From an uncultured Gammaproteobacteria bacterium (GTDB taxonomy: Bacteria > Patescibacteriota > Microgenomatia > Daviesbacterales > UBA10151), in the NCBI GenBank assembly GCA_964405655.1, contig CAYOOO010000008.1:1-52879 (forward strand): a stretch of 52,879 nt of DNA, given 5' to 3'. Under the pieces are notes generated by a model. The model was not told where the DNA came from. It saw only the letters and a list, made by a program, of their open reading frames with translations, and did not search any database. Positions within the stretch are counted from its first letter, which is position 1. Each line of letters starts with the position of its first letter. The position numbers were made by a program, and so were the translations under genes. Positions 7,933 through 52,879 of the stretch are shown piece after piece.

Positions 7933-7961
7933 TTGACAACTTTTAAAATTTTTTTTAGTAT
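7933..7961 (+). promoter_or_regulatory. Sigma70 promoter of the metK leader
   Basis: TTGACA-17 bp-TAGTAT. Confidence 0.65.
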
Positions 7962-8013
7962 CGTTTATAGGTTTTAGTTTTAGGTAAGGCTTGTAAATTT
8001 AAATACTATTTAA

Positions 8014-9268: not shown

Positions 9269-10144
9269 ATGAAAATCACAGTTATTGGTAAAGGAGTTTT
9301 TGGTAAGGCCCTTGGCTCGCTACTTGAGGAAAATAGTGTCAAATTTTCCTACGTTGATATAGACTTACCGATGAGGGAAGTCTCAGATCTGGTTTTTCTA
9401 ACTGTTCCCACCCAGTTTTTAAGAGTAGCTTTAAAAGAAAATAAAAAATTTTTCAAAAAGGAAACTGTCTTTATCAATTGTTCAAAAGGGATTGAGGAAA
9501 AAACTCATCAACTCCCCTTTCAAATTTTTAAAAAAGAACTGAATTATAAAAATTATTACACTTTAGCTGGTCCATCATTTGCTCAAGAAATTATGGAGAA
9601 AAATCCCACTCTGGTAAGTCTTGGTCACAACAGTAGTAAATATGTTTATCAGATTAAAAAACTTGTTCAGACAAACTACTTCAGGATCAAAGAGACTGAG
9701 GGGTTGGAAGCTTTAGAGTTGGCTGCAGCTTTTAAAAATGTTTATGCAATACTCTGCGGTTATATTGACGGACTGGGATATAAAATTAATACCCGGGCCA
9801 AAATTATCACATTAGCTCTTTGGGAATTTGCCGAGCTTGCCAAGAAAATTGGTTTTAAATACCGCTCTTTGGCAGAACCTGCAATTGCTGGAGATCTAAT
9901 TTTGACCTGTTCATCACAGGAAAGTAGAAACTATAGATTTGGTTTCTATCTTGCTAAGATGTCCTCAAAAGAAGCGCTGGAAAAAGTTGCATCAACTGTC
10001 GAAGGGTTTTATACCAGTAGATCAATTCAGGCAATTTCCAAAAAATACAAAGCTTCACTACCTATTGCCCTGCTGACTCACTACATTATTAATAAAGGTA
10101 ACTCTGCCCTACCCTATTTCCATAAAGTTATCTCAAAAGTATAA
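9269..10144 (+). CDS. gpsA: NAD(P)H-dependent glycerol-3-phosphate dehydrogenase
   Basis: GKGVFG Rossmann motif, SKGIE, AGPSFA, FKNVYAI and GDLILTC...SRN. Confidence 0.9.
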   Translation: MKITVIGKGVFGKALGSLLEENSVKFSYVDIDLPMREVSDLVFLTVPTQFLRVALKENKKFFKKETVFINCSKGIEEKTHQLPFQIFKKELNYKNYYTLAGPSFAQEIMEKNPTLVSLGHNSSKYVYQIKKLVQTNYFRIKETEGLEALELAAAFKNVYAILCGYIDGLGYKINTRAKIITLALWEFAELAKKIGFKYRSLAEPAIAGDLILTCSSQESRNYRFGFYLAKMSSKEALEKVASTVEGFYTSRSIQAISKKYKASLPIALLTHYIINKGNSALPYFHKVISKV

Positions 10145-10189
10145 ACTCTGGACAATTTTGGGAAACTGATATATTCTAAACACGAAAAT

Positions 10190-10678
10190 ATGCCAAGACA
10201 AAAGTCACAACCTAAGGATTCCAAAATTATTACCTTTCCCAGGCTTTATCGTTCAGAAACAGATAGAATATTAGGAGGAGTCTGTGGGGGTTTGGGAGAA
10301 TATTTTAATTTGGATCCAACCTTACTCAGAATTATTTTTGTTTTATTGGCTCTTTTTGGTGGATCAGGAATTTTACTCTACCTAGTACTATGGTTGATTG
10401 TTCCGACCCAATCCAGTAGCAGAATTTTGACTGAGGAAAGTATTAAGGAAAATGTTGAAGATATCAAAAATAGGGCAGAAAAATTTGCCCATGATATTAG
10501 AGTTTCCAGGGAAAAAAGAGGCAATGAAAACAGGATGTGGTTCGGGTTTTTAATATTTTTAGCAGGAGTATTATTTCTTTTGAGTAATTATGGAATATAT
10601 GATATAGGGGAACTGCGCCGCCTCTGGCCCCTGCTGATTATCCTCCTCGGGCTTTTTATCATTATTAGAAAAAGCTAA
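10190..10678 (+). CDS. PspC domain membrane protein with a LiaF-like C-terminal TM region
   Basis: LYRSETDRILGGVCGGLGEYF (PspC) and WPLLIILLG. Confidence 0.85.
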   Translation: MPRQKSQPKDSKIITFPRLYRSETDRILGGVCGGLGEYFNLDPTLLRIIFVLLALFGGSGILLYLVLWLIVPTQSSSRILTEESIKENVEDIKNRAEKFAHDIRVSREKRGNENRMWFGFLIFLAGVLFLLSNYGIYDIGELRRLWPLLIILLGLFIIIRKS

Positions 10679-21444: not shown

Positions 21445-21447
21445 TTT

Positions 21448-21501
21448 TTACCAAATGTAAGCGAAGCTTGCCTTTGGTGACTCGAGTCACCAAACGTAGG
21501 C
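21448..21501 (-). repeat. Imperfect direct repeat of the rpsH 3' end around a 22-bp perfect palindrome
   Basis: GCCTACGTTTGGTGA and GCTTACATTTGGTAA, 39 nt apart (12/15 identical). Palindrome TTTGGTGACTC|GAGTCACCAAA at 21473-21494. Confidence 0.75.
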
Positions 21502-22657: not shown

Positions 22658-22972
22658 CTATATAGCTTTCTTGCATTTTCTGCAAATTCTGACTTTGCTA
22701 TCTCCTTTCACTTCATATCCTACTCGAGTTGGTTTTTTACAGTTAGGACAAATCAAAGAAACATTAGAGATATCAACTGGTTTGACAATATCAATAATTC
22801 CACCTTCAATATCCCGATATTTCCTAACATGTCTTTTGGCGATATTAACCCCAGCTACAATCAGTTGTCCTTTTTTACCCAGAACTTTTTCAACTTGGCC
22901 AGTTTTACCTCTGTCTTTACCGAGTAAAACTAAAACATTGTCACCTTTTTTTATTCTGGTCATTTCTACCAT
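22658..22972 (-). CDS. rplX: 50S ribosomal protein L24
   Basis: IKKGD.V.V..GKDRGK.G and CPNCKKPTRVG. Confidence 0.98.
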   Translation of the reverse strand: MVEMTRIKKGDNVLVLLGKDRGKTGQVEKVLGKKGQLIVAGVNIAKRHVRKYRDIEGGIIDIVKPVDISNVSLICPNCKKPTRVGYEVKGDSKVRICRKCKKAI

Positions 22973-23061
22973 CCTCCTATTGTTAACTTAGTCACGTTAC
23001 CGAAATGGCCACTACACGGCTCTATCGTGCTATTTTTCTTAATTTTAAATTCACAATTCAT
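22966..23061 (-). other. 31-aa mini-ORF in the rplN-rplX spacer with an L24-like start
   Basis: GGAG SD upstream. MNCEFKIKKNSTIEPCSGHFGNVTKLTIGGW* overlaps the rplX ATG. Its 5' part lies in a degenerate heptamer tandem repeat (23041-23075). Confidence 0.4.
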
Positions 23062-23076
23062 AATTCTAGATTCTCC

Positions 23077-23445
23077 TCACCATACCTCTTGCGCTAAAGA
23101 AACTATTTTGCTAAAACCTGCATCTCTGACTTCCCTGGCAATAGGTCCGAAAATTCTGGTTGCCCGCAAATTATCATCTTTATCCACAATTACCGCTGCA
23201 TTATCATCAAACTTAATGTAAGAACCATCTTCCCTTCGATATTCTTTTTTGGCCCTGACTAAAACTGCTCTAACTATCTCACCATTTTTGACTTGTCCGT
23301 TCGGATCAGCCCCTTTGACAACAGAGATCATTACTTCACCCAGTCTGCCAAAACGTTTGCCTGAGCCTCCCAAGGGTTGGATTACTTGGAGCCTTTTAGC
23401 CCCCGAATTATCAGCTACGTTTAATATTGATCTGTGTTGTACCAT
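23077..23445 (-). CDS. rplN: 50S ribosomal protein L14
   Basis: [15 protein letters not shown] and [10 protein letters not shown]. Confidence 0.98.
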
Positions 23446-23451
23446 CTTATT

Positions 23452-23509
23452 AAGACAGATTTGGACATAGATTCGATTGATCTAGCAGTTAAACTGCCAA
23501 ATCGTCTGC
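23452..23509 (-). repeat. Palindromic element copy C (rpsQ-rplN spacer)
   Basis: AGACGATTTGG-CAGTTTAACTG...CCAAATCTGTCT; shares both arms with copy B. Confidence 0.7.
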
Positions 23510-23510
23510 T

Positions 23511-23963
23511 CTATGCCTTTTTCTGTTCTGCTTTTCCTTTCTTTTCTTTAATTGAAGTCCTCTTAGCTGATTGTTTTACCCGATTTTCTTTTTTGTTGGC
23601 TTTTTTAGTTTCTTTTTCTTCTTTAGTTTTTACCTCAGCTTCTAGAGCTGCTTCCTCTTTCTTCTCTTCTTCTTCAGGTAAAACTTCCTCAATTGCCTCT
23701 TTTGCCTCTTCTTTAAGTTGCTCAGTTCCTAAAGCCACAATATCTTTACCTAAGACTTTTTTAACCTGATAGTGTTTTCTTTTAGAAATTGGTCTAACTT
23801 TTTCAATCACCACAATGTCTCCTAGACTCACGCCAATTGGATCATCAGCTAAATATTTTTTAGTCCAAGCATAAGACTTTTTATAAACTGGGTGAGTCTT
23901 CCGTTGCTCAACCAGCACTGAAACTGTCTTTTGCATCTTTGTTGATACCACCCTACCAATCAT
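23511..23963 (-). CDS. rpsQ: 30S ribosomal protein S17 with a long charged C-terminal tail
   Basis: GRVVSTKMQKTV and GDIVVIEKVRPISKRK. Confidence 0.97.
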   Translation of the reverse strand: MIGRVVSTKMQKTVSVLVEQRKTHPVYKKSYAWTKKYLADDPIGVSLGDIVVIEKVRPISKRKHYQVKKVLGKDIVALGTEQLKEEAKEAIEEVLPEEEEKKEEAALEAEVKTKEEKETKKANKKENRVKQSAKRTSIKEKKGKAEQKKA

Positions 23964-23965
23964 GT

Positions 23966-24046
23966 TTATTTGGACAAATTTGGACGTGACCTTTTGTTTT
24001 CAATTGGCTTTTTACTGCCGAATTGTCCATCACGACCTTTCGTCAA
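23966..24046 (-). repeat. Palindromic element copy B, in frame in the L29 tail
   Basis: AAAGGTCGTGA-TGGACAATTCGG-CAGT...CCAAATTTGTCCA-AATAA. Confidence 0.7.
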
Positions 24047-24304
24047 CCTCCCTTCTTCTTCTTTTATTTCTTCTGTTGTCTGTTGACTCTTAACTGTTAA
24101 CTCTTCTAACAGCTGTTTTTGCCTTAAAACTGTTAAAACTTGAGCTAAGTCTTTTCTCTTTTTAGAGACTACTTTAATATCTTTTACCTTACTCATGTTT
24201 TTATCCATGATCAGATTATTAATCTCTGTTTTTAAACCTTTAGCTTTAGCTATTAAATCAACAATACTCAAAGTTTTTACTTGTGTTAAATCTTTACTAC
24301 GCAT
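23966..24304 (-). CDS. rpmC: 50S ribosomal protein L29 with a C-terminal extension
   Basis: Sits between rplP and rpsQ; [14 protein letters not shown] motif. The likely start is ATG 24304, overlapping the rplP stop. Confidence 0.88.
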
Positions 24305-24722
24305 GTTCAAACTCCTTAGTGACAAATCTTGTTTTTAAAGGTAGTTTATGGGATGCCAGTCTCATTGCCTCTCGGGCTATATCTTCAGCCACTGCACCCA
24401 TTTCAAAAAGAATATTGCCTGGCCTAACTACTGCCACGTACCCTTCTACATCCCCTTTTCCAGAACCCATTCTAGATTCAGCTGGGTGCTTGGTAATCGG
24501 TTTATCAGGAAAAATCCTAATCCAAATACGTCCACCACGCTGGGTGTAACGAGTCATTGCACGTCTTGCTGCCTCTATTTGACGTGAGGAAATCCAACCT
24601 TCTTCTTCGGTCTTGAGAGCAAAATTGCCAAAGGCGATCCGGTTATTGCGAGTAGCAATACCTTTTCTGCGACCTCGGAATGCTTTTCGATATTTAACTC
24701 GTTTTGGAACTAAAAGTGCCAT
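24297..24722 (-). CDS. rplP: 50S ribosomal protein L16
   Basis: [17 protein letters not shown] and RMGSGKG. Confidence 0.98.
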
Positions 24723-24723
24723 G

Positions 24724-25365
24724 TTAAATTTTTGCCTCCCCTTTGTTAATCCAAACCTTTACACCAACATAACCTGATTTGGTTAAAGCTGGATAAACTG
24801 CAAAATCAATATCAGCTCTTAAAGTATGTAAAGGTATTGAACCGAAAAACTTTGATTCTCTTCTTGCTATCTCTGCTCCACCTATTCGTCCTGATAAAAC
24901 AACTTTGACTCCTTTTGCCCCAGCTCGCATCACTCGATCAATAGTCTGGTTCATTACCCTAGCAGCAGGCATTCTTCTAACAAGTTGGTCAGCAATGCTT
25001 TGAGCAACCAAATAAGCTGACAAATCAGGTATTTTCATATCCATAGGAACTATTTCTAAGGCATTTTCATCCTTAAGATTGAGCTCCCTCATCAAAAATT
25101 TCTTCAACTCTAATAATCCTGTTCCACCTCGGCCTATTAAAATACCAGGTCTTGAGACAAAAATAATGATTTTTATCTTGTTAATTGCTCTTTCTATCTC
25201 TATCTTGGAAATACCAGCTGTCTTGAGTCTCTTCATTAAAATTTCTCTGATTTTCATATCCTCTTTGAGAAACTGCTGATATTTTTTGCTACTGGCAAAC
25301 CACCTGGATTCCCAGGGCGATACTATTCCTAACCTAAAACCAATTGGATTTATCTTTTGGCCCAT
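24724..25365 (-). CDS. rpsC: 30S ribosomal protein S3
   Basis: [13 protein letters not shown] start (track start at 25464 is over-extended); [11 protein letters not shown] and [11 protein letters not shown]. Confidence 0.97.
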
Positions 25366-25367
25366 CT

Positions 25368-25453
25368 TTTTACTTGGACGATCCTGTCCTACCTCCTTTT
25401 GCTGATTCAGTCGCGTTACTGGATCGTCCATTACGATCTTTGGTCTCGCTGAC
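25368..25453 (-). repeat. Palindromic element copy A, in frame in the L22 tail
   Basis: AAAGATCGTAA-TGGACGATCC...GGATCGTCCA-AGTAA, a 10-bp perfect stem. Confidence 0.7.
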
Positions 25454-25825
25454 CTTATTTTCATTTATGTTCTGTTTAGCTTTTGATTCTTTCTTATTTA
25501 TCATTTCGTCTGTTAGGACGATTTTGATATGACTCCACCTTCTTCGATAAGGCCTACCTCTGCCCCGACCAGCTGTACCAACCCGGTATCTTTTTAGCTT
25601 CATTCCCTCATTAATCTCCAGCTTTTTAAAGAATAAATTAGCTGATCCTTTAGCATTGGCCATGGCTGTTTTAATTGCTTTGGCCAAAGGTAGTGAAGCT
25701 GCTTTGTTGGTAAACTGCAAAACTTCTAATGCTTGATCTGGATTCATCTCTCGAATCATCTCAGCTACTAACCTCAGTTTACGAGGTGAGGTGGTCACGT
25801 TTTTTTGTATAGTAATATATTCCAT
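25370..25825 (-). CDS. rplV: 50S ribosomal protein L22 with a C-terminal extension
   Basis: SPRKLRLVA.MIR and RGRPYRRRWSHIKIVL. Confidence 0.97.
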   Translation of the reverse strand: MEYITIQKNVTTSPRKLRLVAEMIREMNPDQALEVLQFTNKAASLPLAKAIKTAMANAKGSANLFFKKLEINEGMKLKRYRVGTAGRGRGRPYRRRWSHIKIVLTDEMINKKESKAKQNINENKVSETKDRNGRSSNATESAKGGRTGSSK

Positions 25826-26125: not shown

Positions 26126-26137
26126 AATTTATATTTA

Positions 26138-26253
26138 TTAATGATCTAAAAGATCTTCATAGAGGGCTTGTCCCTCATACAAGCTTCTTCCCATTATTTA
26201 GTAATCCTTTCTGAAGCGAGTACAGGCTTCGCCTGATATGTACTTCTTGACAT
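26138..26253 (-). other. Two coupled mini-ORFs, each starting with an S19-like N-terminus
   Basis: MSRSTYQAKPVLASERITK* (26253-26194) joined by TAATG to MGRSLYEGQALYEDLLDH* (26194-26138). rpsS starts MSRSSYKG. Confidence 0.6.
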
Positions 26254-26277
26254 AATTGTTTTTCTATTAACTATTGG

Positions 26278-29127: not shown

Positions 29128-29222
29128 AGAAAAAGAGTGATCACGCCAGCTGGCGGATCACTCAGTAATTGTGCCTTACTTCAATTGTCGTATCAGGCAA
29201 AGCCTGACGCACAATTTACTGA
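29128..29222 (-). promoter_or_regulatory. Structured rplC leader: long hairpin followed by a terminator-like hairpin
   Basis: TCAGTAAATTGTGC...GCACAATTACTGA, then GAGTGATC-CGCCAGCTGGCG-T-GATCACTC-TTTTTCTT, ending about 10 nt before the ATG. Confidence 0.6.
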
Positions 29223-29277
29223 TAGAAATTCAAGTTGTAAAAAATTAACCTGATTTAAACATCAGTTTCTTAGGGGA

Positions 29278-29307
29278 ATTTTAACACAGGCTCAGCCACA
29301 TTTGCAA
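29278..29307 (-). promoter_or_regulatory. Internal promoter between rpsJ and rplC
   Basis: TTGCAA-18 bp-TAAAAT with an extended TGn motif. Confidence 0.55.
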
Positions 29308-29324
29308 GCTGCTGCAAAGCTGCA

Positions 29325-29447
29325 GTCCTGAACGAAGTGATGGAATTAATAAAATTTTCTAACCCAACTTTCAGAGATTTATCAGGAGATCTGGCACTCG
29401 CCAGAGATCCTTCACTATGCTCAGGATGATCCGCCATTGGCGGATCA
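29325..29447. repeat. REP-like inverted pair with flanking GC hairpins
   Basis: TCCTGAACGAAGTGA (29326-29340, plus) and TCATCCTGAGCATAGTGAAGGATCTC (29429-29404, minus). Hairpins GATCTGGC-ACTC-GCCAGAGATC and TGATCCGCC-ATT-GGCGGATCA. Confidence 0.65.
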
Positions 29448-29478
29448 CACGGCTACCATCAAAACGTTTCGAGACAAA

Positions 29479-29867: not shown

Positions 29868-31046
29868 TTAAGCAATTATCTTAGTGATAACTCCTGCACC
29901 AACAGTTTTACCACCTTCTCTAATTGCAAAACGAAGCCCTTCTTCCATAGCAACTGGAGTAATGAGTTTTGCAGAAATTTTTACTGTGTCTCCAGGCATA
30001 GCCATCTCAACACCTTCTGGTAATATAACTTCACCTGTCACATCTGTAGTTCTGACATAAAATTGTGGTCTGTACCCTTTGAAAAATGGTGTGTGTCTTC
30101 CTCCCTCTTCTTTTGAAAGTACATAAATTTCTGCTTCAAACTCAGCATGTGGAGTTATTGAGCCGGGTTTGGCAAGAACCTGTCCACGCTCTACATCATC
30201 TTTTTCAATTCCTCTAAGTAAAACTCCTGCATTATCTCCAGCTTCACCTTGGTCTAATAATTTATGAAACATTTCAATTCCAGTAACAACGCTCTTTTTA
30301 GTTGGCCTGATTCCCACAATTTCGACCTCTTCGTTGACTTTGACTACACCTCTTTCAATTCTTCCTGTAACCACGGTTCCTCGACCTTTAATTGAGAAAA
30401 CATCCTCAACAGCCATCAAAAATGGTTTATCTTTATCCCGGGTTGGAGTTGGGATCCATTCGTCAACAGCCTTCATCAACTCTTCAACAGATTTAACCGC
30501 TTCCGCATCACCTTCTAAAGCCTTCTTGGCGCTACCTCGGATAATTGGTGATTGAGGATCAAATTCATACTTTTTCAGCAGGTCTCTCACTTCTTCTTCA
30601 ACCAAATCCAAAAGTTCTGGGTCATCAACCATATCTATTTTATTTAGATAAACTACAATTGCTGGTACTCCAACCTGTCTAGCCAGCAGCAAATGTTCTC
30701 TGGTTTGAGGCATTGGACCATCTGGAGCAGATACAACTAAAATGGCGCCATCTGTTTGAGCGGCGCCGGTAATCATGTTTTTAATATAATCAGCATGTCC
30801 TGGCATGTCGATGTGAGCATAATGCCTTTTTTCAGTCTCGTATTCTTGGTGGGAGATATTAATGGTAATTCCGCGGGCTTTTTCTTCAGGAGCTGCATCA
30901 ATCTGGTCAACTGTTCTAACCTCAGCCATCCCCTTGTCAGCTAAAACTTTAGTGATAGCTGCTGTTAAGGTTGTTTTACCATGGTCAACGTGACCCATGG
31001 TACCAATATTGACGTGTGGTTTAGTTCTTTCAAATTTTCCAGCCAT
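29868..31046 (-). CDS. tuf: Elongation factor Tu
   Basis: [23 protein letters not shown] and NKID. Confidence 0.99.
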
Positions 31047-31051
31047 AGTTT

Positions 31052-31130
31052 AAAAAAGTTTTAGCTACCGAATTGTCCATCCCAAGCTAAAACTGTTCTA
31101 TATTTTAAATTTAAATCAAGTAAAAAGCAA
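31052..31130 (-). promoter_or_regulatory. tuf promoter and leader hairpin with a U-tract
   Basis: TTGCTT-17-TAAAAT (31130-31102), then GTTTTAGCT-N18-AGCTAAAAC-TTTTTT, 5 nt before the ATG. Confidence 0.6.
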
Positions 31131-47951: not shown

Positions 47952-48827
47952 TTAAATCAAATTGCTGCTTTCTACAACATTAGTATCAATTCCCATTTTC
48001 TTTAACTCTTTAATAAACTCACTCTTTCTATCAGATTGACAAGCTCTGCAAAAATCTTTATTACAAAAAGAAACCTCAGAAACAGATAAAATTTTGATGA
48101 TCTTTTGCTTTAAAATACTCTCAAACTTAGCCACCTCACTAAGATCAAATTCCTCATAAAAGCTATTATCCAGTGGATCCTGCCAAAATCTAACTACAAA
48201 TCTAGCCTTGGAAAAGCCTAATTTGGCTAACTTATCAAGACAAAGTAAAACATAGACTTTTGGCATTAAATCCATATCCATATTATCTTTACCTTTTTCA
48301 ATATCCTCCCTAAATTTATAATCTACCACCTCGGCAGTTCCATCATCGCCTGCCTCAATTGCATCTGGTCCTCCCCAAATTTTCCAAACACCCTCATCTG
48401 ATTTAATTACCCATTCACAAAAACCGACTTCAGCAATGGCTGGTTTGATCCTTCTTCCCAATGTTTCATAGTAAGCTGTAAAAATTTCATAGGCCTTTTG
48501 ACAGAGATCATCGTTTAAAAATTTTTCTATTCCTGAATAAAAAGAAGGTCTTTTTTGATATTTCACCTTATCAATCATCTGTTTACAAGAAGCAGTAATT
48601 AAATTTTTTATATATTGGAGAGGTTGATTATAGGAGCGGGTTTTATGAAATAGTTTGATTGTCTCATCCAAAAGGGACCCTAAGGCCATATTATAGTTAC
48701 CTTCCTCTATTTCATATTTTTTTTCTAAATGGTGAGTGACAAAAAATCTAAACGGACAAAACTCAAAGGTATGAAAATCTGTTAGAGAGTAACAATTTAT
48801 TCTAGGGATCCCATCATTATATGGCAT
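47952..48827 (-). CDS. Solo PD-(D/E)XK nuclease (Cas4/AddB/RecB-like)
   Basis: FCPFRF, GGPDAI...VVDYKF and C-terminal CNKDFCRAC. Confidence 0.75.
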   Translation of the reverse strand: MPYNDGIPRINCYSLTDFHTFEFCPFRFFVTHHLEKKYEIEEGNYNMALGSLLDETIKLFHKTRSYNQPLQYIKNLITASCKQMIDKVKYQKRPSFYSGIEKFLNDDLCQKAYEIFTAYYETLGRRIKPAIAEVGFCEWVIKSDEGVWKIWGGPDAIEAGDDGTAEVVDYKFREDIEKGKDNMDMDLMPKVYVLLCLDKLAKLGFSKARFVVRFWQDPLDNSFYEEFDLSEVAKFESILKQKIIKILSVSEVSFCNKDFCRACQSDRKSEFIKELKKMGIDTNVVESSNLI

Positions 48828-48899
48828 GTGATTAAATTACTCTCTTTAAAGCTACTTGTAAAGAAAATTGCGTGTATTTTATTATGTTATATTTAGAGA

Positions 48900-49427
48900 A
48901 TGCGGAGACTTCTCCTGCCCTTTTTTTTAGTTCTGTTTTTTTTAGTCATAAGTTTTACATTATTAATTCATACCTCCTTTGCCAGAATTACACCTGAAGA
49001 TATAGTCAACCAGCAAAGAGAAGACTATCAATCCAAAGTGAATAAGTATTCTCAGTCAAATAGAAAAAAATTGGAGGATTTATCAGCTAAAATTGCCAGT
49101 CTTAATAAAAAAGCTACTGATCAGTATACCCAAGTTATGGACAATCAGGCTCTTATTTTAGACGAGTACCAGAAAAGACTTGGTGGAGGTTCTAATCAAG
49201 CAACTGAAAATGCCAGGTATTGGCTGACGTTTGCTCATGAGGCTGTGGCTTACCAAGCAGCCAAAATTTATATTTTTAGTCTGACAAATGAAACGAATCT
49301 AAAGGGTGATGCCAACTTATTAATCTCCCAACTTCAATCTGATATAAGTACTTTAAGAGGAAAAGTCATCAAGTCTCAAAATATCATAAGGAACCTTCTG
49401 CTCTCGTCTACCAATGGCGGACGTTAA
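48900..49427 (+). CDS. Exported helical hypothetical protein
   Basis: Signal peptide-like N-terminus (..SFA|R) and heptad-like helical body. Confidence 0.65.
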   Translation: MRRLLLPFFLVLFFLVISFTLLIHTSFARITPEDIVNQQREDYQSKVNKYSQSNRKKLEDLSAKIASLNKKATDQYTQVMDNQALILDEYQKRLGGGSNQATENARYWLTFAHEAVAYQAAKIYIFSLTNETNLKGDANLLISQLQSDISTLRGKVIKSQNIIRNLLLSSTNGGR

Positions 49428-49435
49428 ATCGCTAT

Positions 49436-49702
49436 ATGAATATAAAAAGTTTGACTTTATTAATAGCCGTTTCTATCTTAATAGGTTTTCTAATCTTTAA
49501 ACTAACTGGTAACAAATTTAGCCAGGTGGAACAAATTGTCACCAAAAAAATCATCAGGAACCAAATCTCAATTCCCTCCCCTTCTCCTACTTTAAAACCG
49601 CTTGAACAAAATTCAAACCTTGATGAGGAAATAAATAAACTATCCCCCGCTGATTTTTCAGAAGATTTTGCAGATTTAAGAAAACAGGTCTCTAATTTTT
49701 AG
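49436..49702 (+). CDS. Small membrane-anchored hypothetical protein
   Basis: N-terminal TM segment and a PSPSPT linker. Confidence 0.55.
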   Translation: MNIKSLTLLIAVSILIGFLIFKLTGNKFSQVEQIVTKKIIRNQISIPSPSPTLKPLEQNSNLDEEINKLSPADFSEDFADLRKQVSNF

Positions 49703-50169
49703 TCCCAACCTAAGCTTTTGATAGCTTCCTCCGAATAAAACTTGACTGCCTTAGATAAATTATATCTTTGACTGGCTAGCTCAGTTAGATCTACCCATCT
49801 AAGATCATTATGCTCAGTTTCAGCTCTTTTAATCTGATCAGTTTTGGATCTTATCAAATAGGTCAGGCCGATGTGCTGATGAGTATCGCTAATTTTATGA
49901 ATATCTAAATAAGTTGGGGCAATTAAGAATTTTGTCCCATCTGAATTAATATCTGGTTTATTACCCTCTACTTCTAAATCTTCTTTTCTTATTCCTGTCT
50001 CTTCTTCTACTTCTCGAAACAAAGCCTGGATTGGATCTTCAGTAAGTTCAATATGTCCCCCAACTGGTAACCACCTCTTAAGCTTAATATGATCTACTAG
50101 TAAAACACTTCTTTTATAAACTATAAAAGCGGCAACTGTAAAATCTATTGCTTGATGAATATGGGCCAT
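49699..50169 (-). CDS. Nudix hydrolase
   Basis: GGHIELTEDPIQALFREVEEETGI Nudix box. Confidence 0.93.
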   Translation of the reverse strand: MAHIHQAIDFTVAAFIVYKRSVLLVDHIKLKRWLPVGGHIELTEDPIQALFREVEEETGIRKEDLEVEGNKPDINSDGTKFLIAPTYLDIHKISDTHQHIGLTYLIRSKTDQIKRAETEHNDLRWVDLTELASQRYNLSKAVKFYSEEAIKSLGWD

Positions 50170-50172
50170 TTT

Positions 50173-51825
50173 TTATTTTGGATTAACTGCCCTTAAAATC
50201 TCTTTACCATTATATAGATAAAATCTTTGAACTATTTCTTCATCCTTGGCAGGCAGTACCCAAGGACTACCAATAAAAAGAATATCTTTTTTATCTTTAT
50301 CCACTGTCCAATCTATTCTTCGATAATCAAAGTTTTGATACCTTATCCCATATTTTCCATCTTGTAATCTTACTGGGCTATTTTGATAAGTATAGGGATC
50401 AATCTGTCCATAAAACAATAAATAGATATACGGAGTAACAATTGTATAGGGTCCAAGAGTACCGTAACGGGAATCTAGAATAACTTCCTTATATTTATCA
50501 TGATTATCAAGAGCATATAAAACTGCCTCTTTCCATCCATCCATATAAAACTCTGAATTGGTTACTTGATATTGAATAAAGTAAAGATCGCTCATATAAC
50601 TGACACTAAAGATTACAACTGTACTAAGCCCAACTAGTAAAATTCTTTTTTGCCAAAAGTTTTTTTTAATTTTTCCTAATGTATAGTAGAAGCCTGAACC
50701 AACTATCAGCTCAAGTGAGGGAATTAAGGTGAGGGATCTAAAGTGATGCTTGGCATTGTTTGCCAATGATGCAGCCAGTGGACCAATCAACAACCATACA
50801 ACCAAAAGGATCTTTTCCTCTTTTTTAAAGATAAGTTTCTTAACCCAAATAACATAAAGACCTATCAAAAAAAATGGTAGTTCAAAAAGATAAAGAAAAC
50901 CTATATCAGGTGCATTAGGTAGCGTATAACCCATACCGTTGACAAACAACAGATTAAAATCAAAATAATCTAGATATCTCTTTGACCAAAAATTAAAGGT
51001 CAGAAAAAAGTTATTATCAAAGATTTTTTGGGCTAAATTTAAATTTTCATTTTGTTGATGGAGTTGTCCGCTTATATCTATATCCTTTGTTAAAAATGTC
51101 ATATCTACTCTGGTACGTCCTTGGGGAGTTGAGATTATAAAAAGAAACGGAATAATAACAACTAAACCAACTAGACTGGCAAAAATTAATTCCCTTTTCC
51201 TTTTTAACAATTGTTTTCTATAGATTAAAAATAGGCTTATTAGCAAAAGCGGGGTAAAAACTTTTTGTGCATGGTAGGCATAAAATGTTAAACCAAAAAC
51301 AACGGCTGATAACCAAAATATTTTTTTGTTGGCTTTTAAGGCAATAAAAAATAGTAGAGTACCAAGTAAAACTAAAAATAACCCAAGAGTTACATCATGA
51401 GACAGGCGGGAGGGTTTAAGATGCCAGGGTGAAATCGCTAAAGAAAAAGATGCCACTAAAGCAATTAGATTGTTATTTGTTAAAAGTTTAGTCAGAAAGA
51501 AAACTACAACAATCGTTAGTGCTCCAATTAGAGCAACAGTAATTCTGATTCCAAATTCATTTAAACCAAATACTGCAATAGCAGGAACCATTAGATAAAT
51601 TAACAGCGGGGACTTATAATCACCTGTTGAGCGAAAAGATAACGGCCAGGCTGTTCCGTACTCATCCTTTCCTGTTTTTAAAATCGAGTAAGCATTGTAT
51701 CCCTCAGCTGCCTCATCCATTGATAAAGAGATATTGGCTTTTGGAAGATTGATTACTCTAAAAATTAGACCAATTAGAAAAACTATTAAAATTAAAATAA
51801 CTACCAGACGGTTACTAATCTGCAT
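50173..51825 (-). CDS. GT-C fold glycosyltransferase (PMT/ArnT-like)
   Basis: Multi-TM protein with DEAAEGYNAYSILKTGKDEYG, DYKSP and ISPWH. Confidence 0.85.
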   Translation of the reverse strand: MQISNRLVVILILIVFLIGLIFRVINLPKANISLSMDEAAEGYNAYSILKTGKDEYGTAWPLSFRSTGDYKSPLLIYLMVPAIAVFGLNEFGIRITVALIGALTIVVVFFLTKLLTNNNLIALVASFSLAISPWHLKPSRLSHDVTLGLFLVLLGTLLFFIALKANKKIFWLSAVVFGLTFYAYHAQKVFTPLLLISLFLIYRKQLLKRKRELIFASLVGLVVIIPFLFIISTPQGRTRVDMTFLTKDIDISGQLHQQNENLNLAQKIFDNNFFLTFNFWSKRYLDYFDFNLLFVNGMGYTLPNAPDIGFLYLFELPFFLIGLYVIWVKKLIFKKEEKILLVVWLLIGPLAASLANNAKHHFRSLTLIPSLELIVGSGFYYTLGKIKKNFWQKRILLVGLSTVVIFSVSYMSDLYFIQYQVTNSEFYMDGWKEAVLYALDNHDKYKEVILDSRYGTLGPYTIVTPYIYLLFYGQIDPYTYQNSPVRLQDGKYGIRYQNFDYRRIDWTVDKDKKDILFIGSPWVLPAKDEEIVQRFYLYNGKEILRAVNPK

Positions 51826-52879
51826 AAACTACCTCCAAGATACTAAACTCTCCCCTATCTTGGTTATCTTTTTTTTCAATTAACTTATTTTTTAGGAAAT
51901 ATTTTTCTTCTTTTTTGTCAACAACATAAATATCAAATGGATGCTTGACGACCTCTAAGTTAGACAATTTTTGCTTTTCTTCTAAATACTTAAACCATTT
52001 ATCCTTTGCCAAACGGACATCTTTTAAATCACCAATGGTGACATTGTTAAACTGATTTAACCAAGCCCGGTAGAAATCAGATCTTTTTCGAGAAAGATTG
52101 GTTTGATTAAAGGGAACATTTAAATAATAAGTTATGGTCGGACCAGGGTTTGGTCTATTCGAATCAGATACCCAAATTTTTTTATCAGGATTTTTTTTAA
52201 TAAACTCTGCTATCTGATAATTCTCTTCTTGCCAAGTTAGATAAGATCTATTTTTTTCTTTGGCTAAAATATCAAATACTACCAAACTAAAATTTAGAGT
52301 TATCAGTAAAACTAATAAAATCTTAAGCCAAGCTCTTTTAACCTTAATTAAAGAAAAAGAAGAGAAAATAGAAATTGCAAAAAGACCTGGCAAAAAACGA
52401 TTTGTCTGGGGAGCCATCGATAAGAATACTCCTGGGAGAGTCGAGACCAACAAAAGAATAAAAATAAACAGGACCCCAATTGAAAAGTTTTGCCAAGCCA
52501 GTATCAACCCTATTACTGTAAATGGAAAAAATATCAGTAAGATAGGTCCAAAATTGCTAGGATTTTGTAAAGACTGAGAATCACCTCTGGTAAATAAAAA
52601 ACTTGGATTGATGTAACTTAAGAAATTTTCAACTATTTTAGTTAAGTAGTAAGACTTGTTAAAAAATATTGTTCCTAAATATTTATTACCCTTCTCTCTT
52701 TCCTGACCTCTCAACAAATTAACATTGGCCAAAAAATCACTTTTATAAAAAAGCGATAAATCATTTTCTTTGATACTTTGCCAACCAGCTGGGGTTTTTA
52801 TAATTAATAATAAAATTATTGCAAAGAAAGTTAAAACAGTTATTAAAACAGATCGTTTAACTTTCAATAAATTATGGAA
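51815..52879 (-). CDS. GT-C fold glycosyltransferase paralog; 5' end outside the window
   Basis: The frame is open to the window edge. It resembles the C-terminal half of the neighbour (SYINPSFLFTRGD vs DYFDFNLLFVNG; RFLP vs RSLT). Confidence 0.7.
   Translation of the reverse strand, partial: FHNLLKVKRSVLITVLTFFAIILLLIIKTPAGWQSIKENDLSLFYKSDFLANVNLLRGQEREKGNKYLGTIFFNKSYYLTKIVENFLSYINPSFLFTRGDSQSLQNPSNFGPILLIFFPFTVIGLILAWQNFSIGVLFIFILLLVSTLPGVFLSMAPQTNRFLPGLFAISIFSSFSLIKVKRAWLKILLVLLITLNFSLVVFDILAKEKNRSYLTWQEENYQIAEFIKKNPDKKIWVSDSNRPNPGPTITYYLNVPFNQTNLSRKRSDFYRAWLNQFNNVTIGDLKDVRLAKDKWFKYLEEKQKLSNLEVVKHPFDIYVVDKKEEKYFLKNKLIEKKDNQDRGEFSILEVVYAD

Follow-up and report, generated by a model that had tools for sequence, protein, structure and literature searches.

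A structured, probably mobile repeat at the stop-start junctions of ribosomal protein genes in Daviesbacteria

The 52,879-nt stretch analysed here (contig CAYOOO010000008.1; hereafter the window) encodes on its minus strand the tuf/S10/spc/alpha ribosomal cluster of a Candidatus Daviesbacteria genome (Microgenomates, candidate phyla radiation (CPR)), an assignment based on the closest L22 and S3 relatives, which belong to Daviesbacteria metagenome-assembled genomes. Three related hairpin elements, designated A, B and C, occupy the L22-S3, L29-S17 and S17-L14 junctions of this cluster. We propose, with a probability of about 0.55 for the explanation as a whole, that these elements represent a Daviesbacteria-specific family of structured repeats of about 75-95 nt located at the stop-start junctions of co-directional genes, chiefly in the tuf/S10/spc/alpha cluster, and that this probably mobile repeat colonises such junctions and displaces the Shine-Dalgarno (SD) sequence, with upstream open reading frames (ORFs) extending into it. 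A first-pass annotation had described A, B and C as a dispersed palindromic element, read in frame in the L22 and L29 tails and present in the rpsQ-rplN spacer, reminiscent of the Rickettsia palindromic elements (RPEs), which insert into coding sequence, and a possible source of the terminal extensions of CPR ribosomal proteins. Inspection of the sequence and the leave-out profile described below located all three elements where that annotation had placed them on the minus strand. The genes and elements involved are listed here in the order in which they are transcribed.

31050-31097, minus strand: tuf-leader copy, 5' half only (...GAACAGTTTTAGCTTGGGATGGACAATTCGGTAGC...), nhmmer E 0.0017
29868-31046, minus strand: tuf, with its ATG at 31046
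25370-25825, minus strand: rplV (L22), 151 aa, from the ORF list and PF00237 homologues
25366-25458, minus strand: element A, subfamily 1, in the L22 tail and directly before S3
25441-25422, minus strand: AAAGATCGTAATGGACGATC, the sequence first noted for element A, within the L22 tail
25430-25421 and 25384-25375, minus strand: 5' arm TGGACGATCC and 3' arm GGATCGTCCA of element A, an inverted repeat
24724-25365, minus strand: rpsC (S3), whose start follows element A, with no SD within 20 nt of the ATG
24297-24722, minus strand: L16
23966-24304, minus strand: rpmC (L29), 112 aa, from the ORF list and tblastn to relatives
23962-24056, minus strand: element B, subfamily 2, in the L29 tail and directly before S17
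24040-24021, minus strand: AAAGGTCGTGATGGACAATT, the sequence first noted for element B, within the L29 tail
24029-24018 and 23983-23971, minus strand: 5' arm TGGACAATTCGG and 3' arm CCAAATTTGTCCA of element B
24037-24030 with 23989-23982, minus strand: alternative helix of element B, GGTCGTGA with TCACGTCC, from the predicted fold
24008-24001, minus strand: inner partner GCCAATTG of element B
23511-23963, minus strand: rpsQ (S17), whose start follows element B and whose stop precedes the 5' arm of element C by 3 nt
23443-23535, minus strand: element C, untranslated, filling the 65-nt S17-L14 spacer
23506-23493 and 23466-23447, minus strand: GACGATTTGGCAGT and GTCCAAATCTGTCTTAATAA, the sequences first noted for element C
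23508-23497 and 23464-23452, minus strand: 5' arm CAGACGATTTGG and 3' arm CCAAATCTGTCTT of element C
23517-23510 with 23471-23463, minus strand: compensated helix of element C, GGCATAGA with TCTATGTCC
23077-23445, minus strand: rplN (L14), whose start follows element C, with no SD within 20 nt of the ATG
22961-23015, minus strand: tentative degenerate hairpin resembling subfamily 1 in the L14-L24 spacer, TGGCCATTTC...AGGAGG...GAAATGACTA, with a leave-out nhmmer E of only 0.11

The L22 stop codon (TAA, 25372-25370) lies 4 nt ahead of the S3 ATG (25365-25363), and the L29 stop codon (TAA, 23968-23966) lies 2 nt ahead of the S17 ATG (23963-23961), whereas element C is flanked by the S17 stop (TAG, 23513-23511) and the L14 ATG (23445-23443) and remains untranslated. 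Scores with the family covariance model (CM R1) were 81.1 bits for B, 65.8 bits for C (minimum free energy (MFE) -28.5 kcal/mol, z -5.7) and 25.8 bits for A (E 0.005; MFE -26.2 kcal/mol, z -3.3), which belongs to a more divergent subfamily. Its loop holds an SD-like GGAGG at 25396-25392, and a GGGAGG lies upstream in element B at 24052-24047. The conserved hairpin of element A is not the local GATCGT/ACGATC pairing initially put forward, but a long-range stem formed by TGGACGATCC and GGATCGTCCA. The partial tuf-leader copy has a full-length counterpart at the same position before tuf in L091 (L followed by a number designates loci from other genomes or contigs), and the hairpin at 22961-23015, with the SD in its loop and the ATG in its 3' arm, is orthologous to a clearer copy in L003 (10383-10445).

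Pattern and repeat counts made on the window alone are post hoc and constitute weak evidence. We estimate that chance alone would produce an exact 13-mer at two sites in 53 kb, and short shared words are expected over such a length, so that the similarity could in principle reflect coincidence among AT-rich, lysine-codon-rich gene ends. Because the counts in the window were post hoc, we relied instead on a leave-out profile, in which an nhmmer model built exclusively from the copies of other genomes was run over the 52.9-kb window. It recovered B (E 1.1e-15), C (2.1e-5), the tuf leader (4.6e-4) and A (9.9e-4), all on the minus strand, and apart from the marginal L24 leader (0.11) every other match over the 52.9 kb had an E-value above 0.7. 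At E<=0.05, CM R1 identified 26 copies in 13 Daviesbacteria sources, all on the sense strand, with E-values that are rough owing to a shortened calibration, and scans of non-Daviesbacteria loci with the covariance model and nhmmer yielded no copies. Leave-out E-values reaching 1e-15, 26 model matches at homologous positions and the covariation described below make a chance origin hardly credible. The existence of a dispersed palindromic family is thereby upheld, with further copies both in the window, where the tuf leader is an additional one, and in relatives.

The family does not correspond to a catalogued RNA. Searches of the whole window with the 4227 Rfam models at the gathering threshold returned no matches, and a relaxed search of 22900-25600, with E up to 5, returned only two chance-level matches to eukaryotic families. 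None of the sites reported by a promoter and terminator scan coincided with A, B or C, and their counts were at or below those expected from shuffled sequence. A scan of viral contigs with a 23-nt pattern gave no matches, and a phage origin is not indicated by these sequence searches. The literature searched contained no earlier description of the element.

A scan with the S3 protein, limited to one genome per species, outlined 14 Daviesbacteria loci (L001-L014, S3 71-81% identical) together with more distant Microgenomates, and the 110 nt ahead of the S3, S17, L14 and tuf starts were compared across these loci and the window. The element was present in this region in 6 of these 15 unbiased genomes and absent from the remaining 9. 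Copies were identified before S3 in L003, L005, L007 and L012, with a decayed copy in L004; L005 carries in addition an untranslated copy before S17, where L29 stops 72 nt earlier, and a copy before L14 that lies within the S17 tail. Searches with nhmmer and CM R1 added copies before L16, L24 and L5 in L003, and a copy before L18 in the same locus was recognised by eye only. A metagenome scan with the 23-nt pattern produced six true matches: one S17-type copy (on two identical contigs), two copies before S3, and those of L084 and L085. The L084 copy forms the 3' end of one gene of a convergent pair, which encodes a membrane protein of 305 aa, and is read as ...GRSGQFGRKS*, and the L085 copy precedes a gene encoding a 48-aa zinc-ribbon protein, with a second copy in tandem just upstream. 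Four further loci were retrieved through L22 proteins with element-like tails; of these, L091 presents copies before tuf, S3, L16, L14 and rpmJ, L088 before S3 and rpsK, L090 before S3, and L092 before S3 and L14. Metagenome contigs aligned to element B contributed extra copies in other organisms, including one that lies directly against the 3' end of a tRNA gene and follows the 3' arm of another copy. Copies in tandem have the same orientation, and of the 26 copies identified with CM R1 all except that of L084 end 0-10 nt before an ATG. The occupied ribosomal junctions vary by genome and comprise tuf, S3, L16, S17, L14, L24, L5, L36 and S11.

The stem common to these copies joins a 5' arm made of TGGAC and 5-7 variable nucleotides (GGACAATTYGG, GGACGATCC, AGCCGATTCGG, AGACTTTTCGG, AGATGATTCAG and others) to a complementary 3' arm that ends in GTCCA and often contains one bulged base. 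The intervening loop spans 35-45 nt and opens with CAGT or CAGA, and an A-rich segment of 0-10 nt separates the stem from the ATG. Over the 26 copies the 12-bp long-range stem is 97.7% paired, and changes on both sides were detected at 9 of its 12 pairs (49 cells), a result matched by none of 500 shuffles; slid-register controls reached at most 51.5% pairing. In a MAFFT alignment of 10 copies pairing amounted to 95.8%, and RNAalifold returned the long stem only. All copies fold better than shuffled sequences (z -1.9 to -6.2), and the sense fold is the better one in 12 of 16 copies.

In subfamily 2, whose members resemble element B, ViennaRNA favours a nested rod that is predicted to be 3-15 kcal/mol more stable than the long stem. 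This predicted rod measures about 25-28 bp, is interrupted by internal loops and would bring the 5' arm together with an inner repeat (AUUUGGCA/UGCCAAAU) and GGUCGUA together with UACG-U-ACC; a subset of copies would add pairing between the upstream AAACAGAYU and the 3' arm. By manual inspection about 12 of 14 B-like copies retain the GGUCGUA helix, and element C presents a fully compensated counterpart (GGCAUAGA/UCUAUGUCC). This helix crosses the long stem with connecting loops of 1 and 0 nt, so the two should be mutually exclusive, which at the level of predicted folds suggests a bistable RNA. An H-type pseudoknot combining the helix (a:a') with the long stem was excluded by the same loop lengths, and the rod was discarded as a family consensus because it lacks support from covariation and RNAalifold gives the long stem alone. 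GGTCGTA may also resemble the 3' region of 16S rRNA (AAGUCGUAACAAGG).

A strongly covarying stem, in strict sense orientation and at a fixed position before start codons, is also what would be expected of a vertically inherited cis-regulatory RNA, such as a translational operator or a ribosomal protein autoregulatory site mimicking rRNA and recognised by a ribosomal protein or some other RNA-binding protein, that controls S3, S17, L14 and other genes and is rarely duplicated. The conservation of the element exceeds that of synonymous sites, copies are enriched at translation genes including tuf, rpmJ and rpsK, and the L24 leader of L003 and the window, whose loop holds the SD and whose 3' arm holds the ATG, follows a classical operator design. 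The absence of an Rfam match, of a candidate binding protein and of an rRNA look-alike argues against this explanation, as do copies in tandem, beside a tRNA gene and at a convergent gene end, and the translation of half of the copies. Together with the evolutionary evidence presented below, these observations lead us to consider it rather unlikely.

Intercistronic location and sense-strand folding could alternatively reflect a module for mRNA processing or stability, in which an RNase III-type site or a block to exonucleases segments or protects the ribosomal polycistron. Intercistronic repetitive extragenic palindrome (REP) hairpins and the RNase III sites of the T7 early region provide precedents for such a role. 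The predicted rods of subfamily 2 would suit it, as would the L084 copy, which closes a gene of a convergent pair where a 3' hairpin is useful, and the AU-rich GAATTA repeats upstream of several copies could serve as cleavage sites. The well-supported stem, however, comprises only 12 bp, which is short for RNase III, a terminator-like U tract is absent and the rod is devoid of covariation support; we therefore regard this possibility as unlikely. Either activity, as a cis-operator or in processing and stability, could be what the same putatively mobile family does at the RNA level.

The relationship of the elements to reading frames indicates that conservation operates on nucleotides. Element A encodes approximately the last 24-28 residues of L22 and element B approximately the last 30 of L29, the rest of both tails being a lysine- and glutamate-rich, ordinary variable tail. 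The ORF list bears out the earlier observation that A and B share a reading frame in the window (TKDRNGR and TKGRDGQ), and the L084 protein ends in GRSGQFGRKS in that same frame, which would be expected if the tails were ribosomal protein features selected for a function on the CPR ribosome and the elements resembled each other in nucleotides only through a common peptide motif. Nevertheless, translated copies adopt two phases at the 5' arm, GGA-CAA-TTC... or GAC-GAT-TYG.... The GRDGQFG-type reading occurs ahead of S3 and S17 in the window and in L084, and the DDSAEK-type reading in L003, L005, L007, L012 and the proteins P0002, P0004, P0105 and P0112. Other copies are not translated at all (those before L14 in the window, S17 in L005, and L5, L16 and L24 in L003, and that of L085), with equal conservation of their nucleotides, and the changes observed compensate base pairing. 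The L22 tails of 120 homologues are hypervariable in sequence and in length (7 to about 85 residues) and share no motif, and only about 7 of the 120 contain element-coded peptides (PDDSAEK, TDDLAVK, LDDSAVK and others). The existence of two frames or no translation, combined with the hypervariability of L22 tails, points to conservation at the nucleotide level with incidental tails, and selection for the peptides thus appears very improbable. On this sequence evidence, the L22 and L29 tails of the window are ORF extensions into an intercistronic element and do not represent a selected peptide.

About half of the copies are translated, always as the C-terminal end of an ORF. Full read-through, with the stop -1 to +4 nt from the ATG, was observed ahead of S3 and S17 in the window, S3 in L003, L004, L005, L007 and L012, and L14 in L005. 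The upstream ORF stops inside the element in L083 and L084, at its 5' edge ahead of S17 in L005 and of L14 in the window, and 110-125 nt before it for three copies of L003. No internal in-frame copy was established, a weak candidate in L084 (E 0.22) having the appearance of native coding sequence. Insertion into coding sequence, as suggested in the first-pass annotation, is consequently not borne out, since the elements lie between the 3' end of the upstream gene and the next ATG with the upstream stop before, inside or after them, and ORF extension into an intercistronic element is the more likely explanation. Orthologs devoid of the element are mostly shorter, as anticipated (112-129 versus 144-163 aa for L22, and 72-90 versus 112 aa for L29), and the L29 proteins of L004 and L007 have long tails without it. 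The element hence accounts for part of some tails, but the broader proposal that it is a source of CPR ribosomal protein extensions holds for a minority of proteins, seen only in Daviesbacteria.

The element occupies the usual SD site. Within 20 nt of the ATG, 2 of 16 element junctions have an SD-like motif, compared with 46 of 59 compact junctions (Fisher p 2.7e-6), and both positive element junctions are of the L24-leader type, in which the SD lies in the loop. The stem spans about -20 to -8 of the downstream start, and comparison of L005 with L086 places the L14-junction copy between a native GAGG/GGGGG and AAATAAGT-ATG. Among 23 long-spacer (>12 nt) ribosomal junctions in the window, L001-L014 and L083, which lack the element and hold inserts of other families, none presents an SD-like motif within 20 nt. 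It may be observed that an intercistronic insert of any kind accompanies SD-less initiation in this lineage.

Several candidate signals within the element were assessed and rejected. A mini-ORF (GTG/ATG GAC AAT ... TAA, 9-10 codons) occurs in no more than 3-4 copies and lacks conservation, and the conserved T(A/G)A before GGTCGT, considered as a functional upstream stop, is in frame only ahead of S17 in L005, which disqualifies it as a coupling signal of the whole family. Reading TGGACA as a -35 box suits just one unrelated site ahead of the gene at 10190, where there is no element: the sequence TGGACAATTTTGGGAAAC (10146-10189, plus strand), 40 nt before a gene encoding a PspC-domain protein, resembles the 5' arm but fits better as a -35/-10 promoter (TGGACA, 17 nt, TATTCT), and the profiles give no match to it. 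An ATG within element A (ATGGACGATCC; 25431-25363, minus strand) shares its frame with S3 (ORF 24724-25464) and could lead gene callers to extend the S3 N-terminus by 22 residues, probably as an artefact.

The similarity among copies follows neither junction nor genome. Nucleotide identity of the S3 gene ranges from 67 to 85% (68-73% for the genome pairs in which elements were compared), and its four-fold sites are 30-59% identical between genomes, at or near saturation. Mutual identity among the copies before S3 in L083, L086 and L007 and before S17 in L005 is 76-80%, above that of the S3 gene. Nearest neighbours cross junctions and genomes, with the L005 copy before S17 closest to the L083 copy before S3 (80%) and the window copy before S17 closest to the L003 copy before S3 (68%), and C-type copies are found before L14 in the window and before S3 in L090 and L091. 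Occupancy differs as well: in L005 the S3 and L14 junctions hold subfamily 1 and the S17 junction subfamily 2, and L086, whose S3 protein is 93% identical, carries subfamily 2 at S3 only. In one relative, a TAATG replaces element C at the S17/L14 junction. High identity among copies, neighbours that cross junctions and differing occupancy suggest repeated copying between junctions or genomes, under constraint. A single ancient insertion decaying in place does not appear to fit these data, and the element probably is or was mobile. Clustering of copies across junctions and genomes, instead of by junction, and the empty junctions with an ordinary SD in 9 of the 15 genomes further weaken the case for a vertically inherited operator.

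The distribution suggests a copy-and-paste spread between junctions, which could have proceeded through hairpin-dependent single-strand transposition, of the REP-associated tyrosine transposase (REP/RAYT) or IS200 type, or through microhomology-mediated conversion at GGAGG...ATG. The element would arrive in the short spacer between the SD or stop and the ATG, after which the upstream stop would drift freely and the ORF would often read through to the TAA beside the ATG, giving L22, L29 or S17 an incidental, presumably disordered C-terminal tail in whichever frame applies. Since the stem covers about -20 to -8, de novo initiation would be SD-independent and probably damped. Downstream expression would then lean on ribosomes arriving from the upstream ORF through termination-reinitiation, the stop lying 0-4 nt from the ATG in translated copies. 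More speculatively, and in one subfamily, the nested rod may bring the upstream GGAGG within about 8-11 unpaired nt of the ATG, creating a split ribosome-binding site (RBS); with the predicted rod removed, 6-11 unpaired nt separate GGAGG and AUG in five subfamily-2 copies. Given that the rod lacks covariation support, this idea applies at best to one subfamily. A bolder formulation envisages a mobile translation-initiation cassette, in which a bistable RNA alternating between the long stem and the rod with GGUCGUA/UACG-U-ACC replaces the SD, couples cistrons or rebuilds a split RBS, spreads between junctions and rewires the stoichiometric control of ribosomal proteins, the tails being a by-product; we regard this formulation as rather unlikely.

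Several observations weigh against a mobile, structured repeat as the explanation. Comparison of filled and empty junctions in L005 and L086 showed no target-site duplication, with flanks too diverged to define exact boundaries, and no empty/filled pair was found between near-identical strains, so that mobility rests on distribution only. Metagenome contigs aligned to the region, which derive mostly from other CPR species, likewise provided no clean empty/filled joint. Pfam searches detected no transposase family, nor specifically a Y1 transposase or RAYT, in 20 of the approximately 25 non-ribosomal ORFs of the window (5 of the 20 had no family match, and about 5 ORFs at 47952-52867 lay outside the scan). 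Sampling was biased, most loci having been retrieved through S3 or L22, and the enrichment at ribosomal junctions is therefore partly a matter of ascertainment, even if the unbiased samples (the window and five distinct metagenome matches, three of them ribosomal) still favour ribosomal junctions. With regard to structure, the 26-copy alignment was made with the covariance model and leans towards the modelled stem, and the rod is 51% paired on this alignment, not clearly above controls. Lastly, in translated copies the stem would be held open by ribosomes where the mRNA is heavily translated, so a common RNA-level function is not obvious, and the public sequencing runs searched yielded DNA contigs only and no RNA runs.

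Comparison with known systems reveals a likeness in behaviour to several repeat classes. RPEs measure about 100-150 bp and occupy internal positions in many kinds of genes. The likeness noted in the first-pass annotation extends to behaviour, as both are short palindromic repeats of reduced genomes, which can lie in ORFs and be translated with the host protein left intact and are patchy among relatives, but not to size and position: the element is about 75-95 nt long, lies at the extreme 3' end of ORFs or between them, abutting the next start, is untranslated in many copies and belongs to a CPR lineage. Enterobacterial repetitive intergenic consensus sequences, or intergenic repeat units (ERIC/IRU), and Correia-type MITEs (miniature inverted-repeat transposable elements) represent non-autonomous imperfect palindromes of about 100 nt in transcribed intergenic regions, which fold in mRNA and alter the stability or translation of their neighbours; they have terminal inverted repeats and target-site duplications and occur in both orientations. 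The Daviesbacteria element is likewise an imperfect palindrome in transcribed intercistronic regions, but is strictly sense, fixed in position to the ATG and without a visible duplication at the L005/L086 junctions, and its inverted arms covary instead of maintaining one consensus.

In the split RBSs of T4 genes 25 and 38, and in the coupling described for MS2 and for IF3-L35-L20, a hairpin sets the distance between SD and AUG or makes initiation dependent on upstream translation. Removal of the predicted rod would similarly restore a GGAGG-AUG spacing of 8-11 nt in five element copies, but the T4, MS2 and IF3 structures are single and locus-specific, whereas here a repeat family is involved and the geometry derives from a predicted fold without covariation. 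Like the ribosomal protein leaders in Rfam, the element is a structured RNA upstream of ribosomal protein cistrons, yet it has no Rfam match and is found at many cistrons and outside ribosomal operons. A further analogy is with REPs and bacterial interspersed mosaic elements (BIMEs), hairpin repeats first described at intercistronic sites of operons, co-transcribed and with pairing maintained by compensatory change. REPs are GC-rich palindromes of 20-40 nt with 2-5-nt loops, extragenic, present in more than 100 copies per genome, often in alternating orientation, and flank a RAYT gene (PMC2817692). The element differs in its AT-rich stem, 35-45-nt loop, 75-95-nt unit, translation of half of the copies and tandem copies in the same orientation. 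A GTAG resembling the GT(A/G)G head of REPs precedes the stem by 1 nt in 5 of the first 10 subfamily-2 copies, but the combination of a GT(A/G)G head with a short GC-rich palindrome that defines REPs was not found. A study of CPR ribosomes describes lineage-specific added regions in ribosomal proteins and mentions no such element (PMC9297842).

Ribosomal protein operons count among the best conserved and most densely packed parts of bacterial genomes. Their junctions host here a structured repeat that removes the SD from essential genes such as S3, S17, L14 and tuf, and in relatives such junctions host several other short insert families. If mobile, the element would be a rare documented repeat family in streamlined CPR genomes and would offer a concrete route to lineage-specific C-terminal extensions of ribosomal proteins, through ORFs running into an intercistronic element. 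If functional, it would offer a naturally occurring, portable module for coupled or SD-independent translation and a handle on the balance of ribosomal protein synthesis in uncultured bacteria. In practical terms, the element leads gene callers to extend or mis-start ribosomal protein genes that serve as phylogenetic markers.

Among these other inserts is a second junction repeat family, in which a leader poor in G and rich in CTAG (tcctagactctagcgactagtcactaaYtt) immediately precedes the ATG, with no SD. It is found in L010 at about 7960-8000 (before S3) and also before S17 and L22, in L004 before S17 and in L001 before L15. A telomere-like run (cccttaacccttaaccctaac) fills the spacer before the start of S3 in L008 and of L14 in L003 (about 9915-9942). 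The L008 spacers before L22, L29 and L5 contain a third family, with a perfect 13-bp hairpin (GATGACAATTTGAAT...ATTCAAATTGTC) followed by AAATCGGC(A/T)AG and the ATG; its arms resemble the element arms GACAATTTG/CAAATTGTC, and it may be a compact relative. AT-rich GAATTAnGAATTA(AGA) repeats are located upstream of hairpin copies at about 22990-23070 of the window (minus strand) and in L003 (8643-8680 and 10312-10350), as well as in the L2-S19 spacer of L005, and could be RNase cleavage sites or elements resembling promoter UP elements.

Elsewhere in the cluster, the 152-nt L2-S19 spacer of the window (26126-26277, minus strand) is structured, with an MFE of -28 kcal/mol, and at the corresponding rplB-rpsS position L088 (3942-4292), L089, L090 (68-346) and L091 (9265-9636) contain an additional ORF (92-123 aa) that matches no Pfam family. 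A perfect 16-nt palindrome (GGTGACTCGAGTCACC) lies across the S8 stop in the S8-L6 spacer (about 21446-21465, minus strand), and a second hairpin that follows it ends in ATTTGGTAAAAAATG. Finally, S10 and the called L3 start are separated by 334 nt (29145-29478, minus strand) that include two GC-rich palindromes (GATCCGCC...GGCGGATC). L004 and L009 conserve the sequence ACTGAGTGATCCGCC ahead of L3, L010 and L012 have variants of it, and the true start of L3 is probably the ATG at about 29117.

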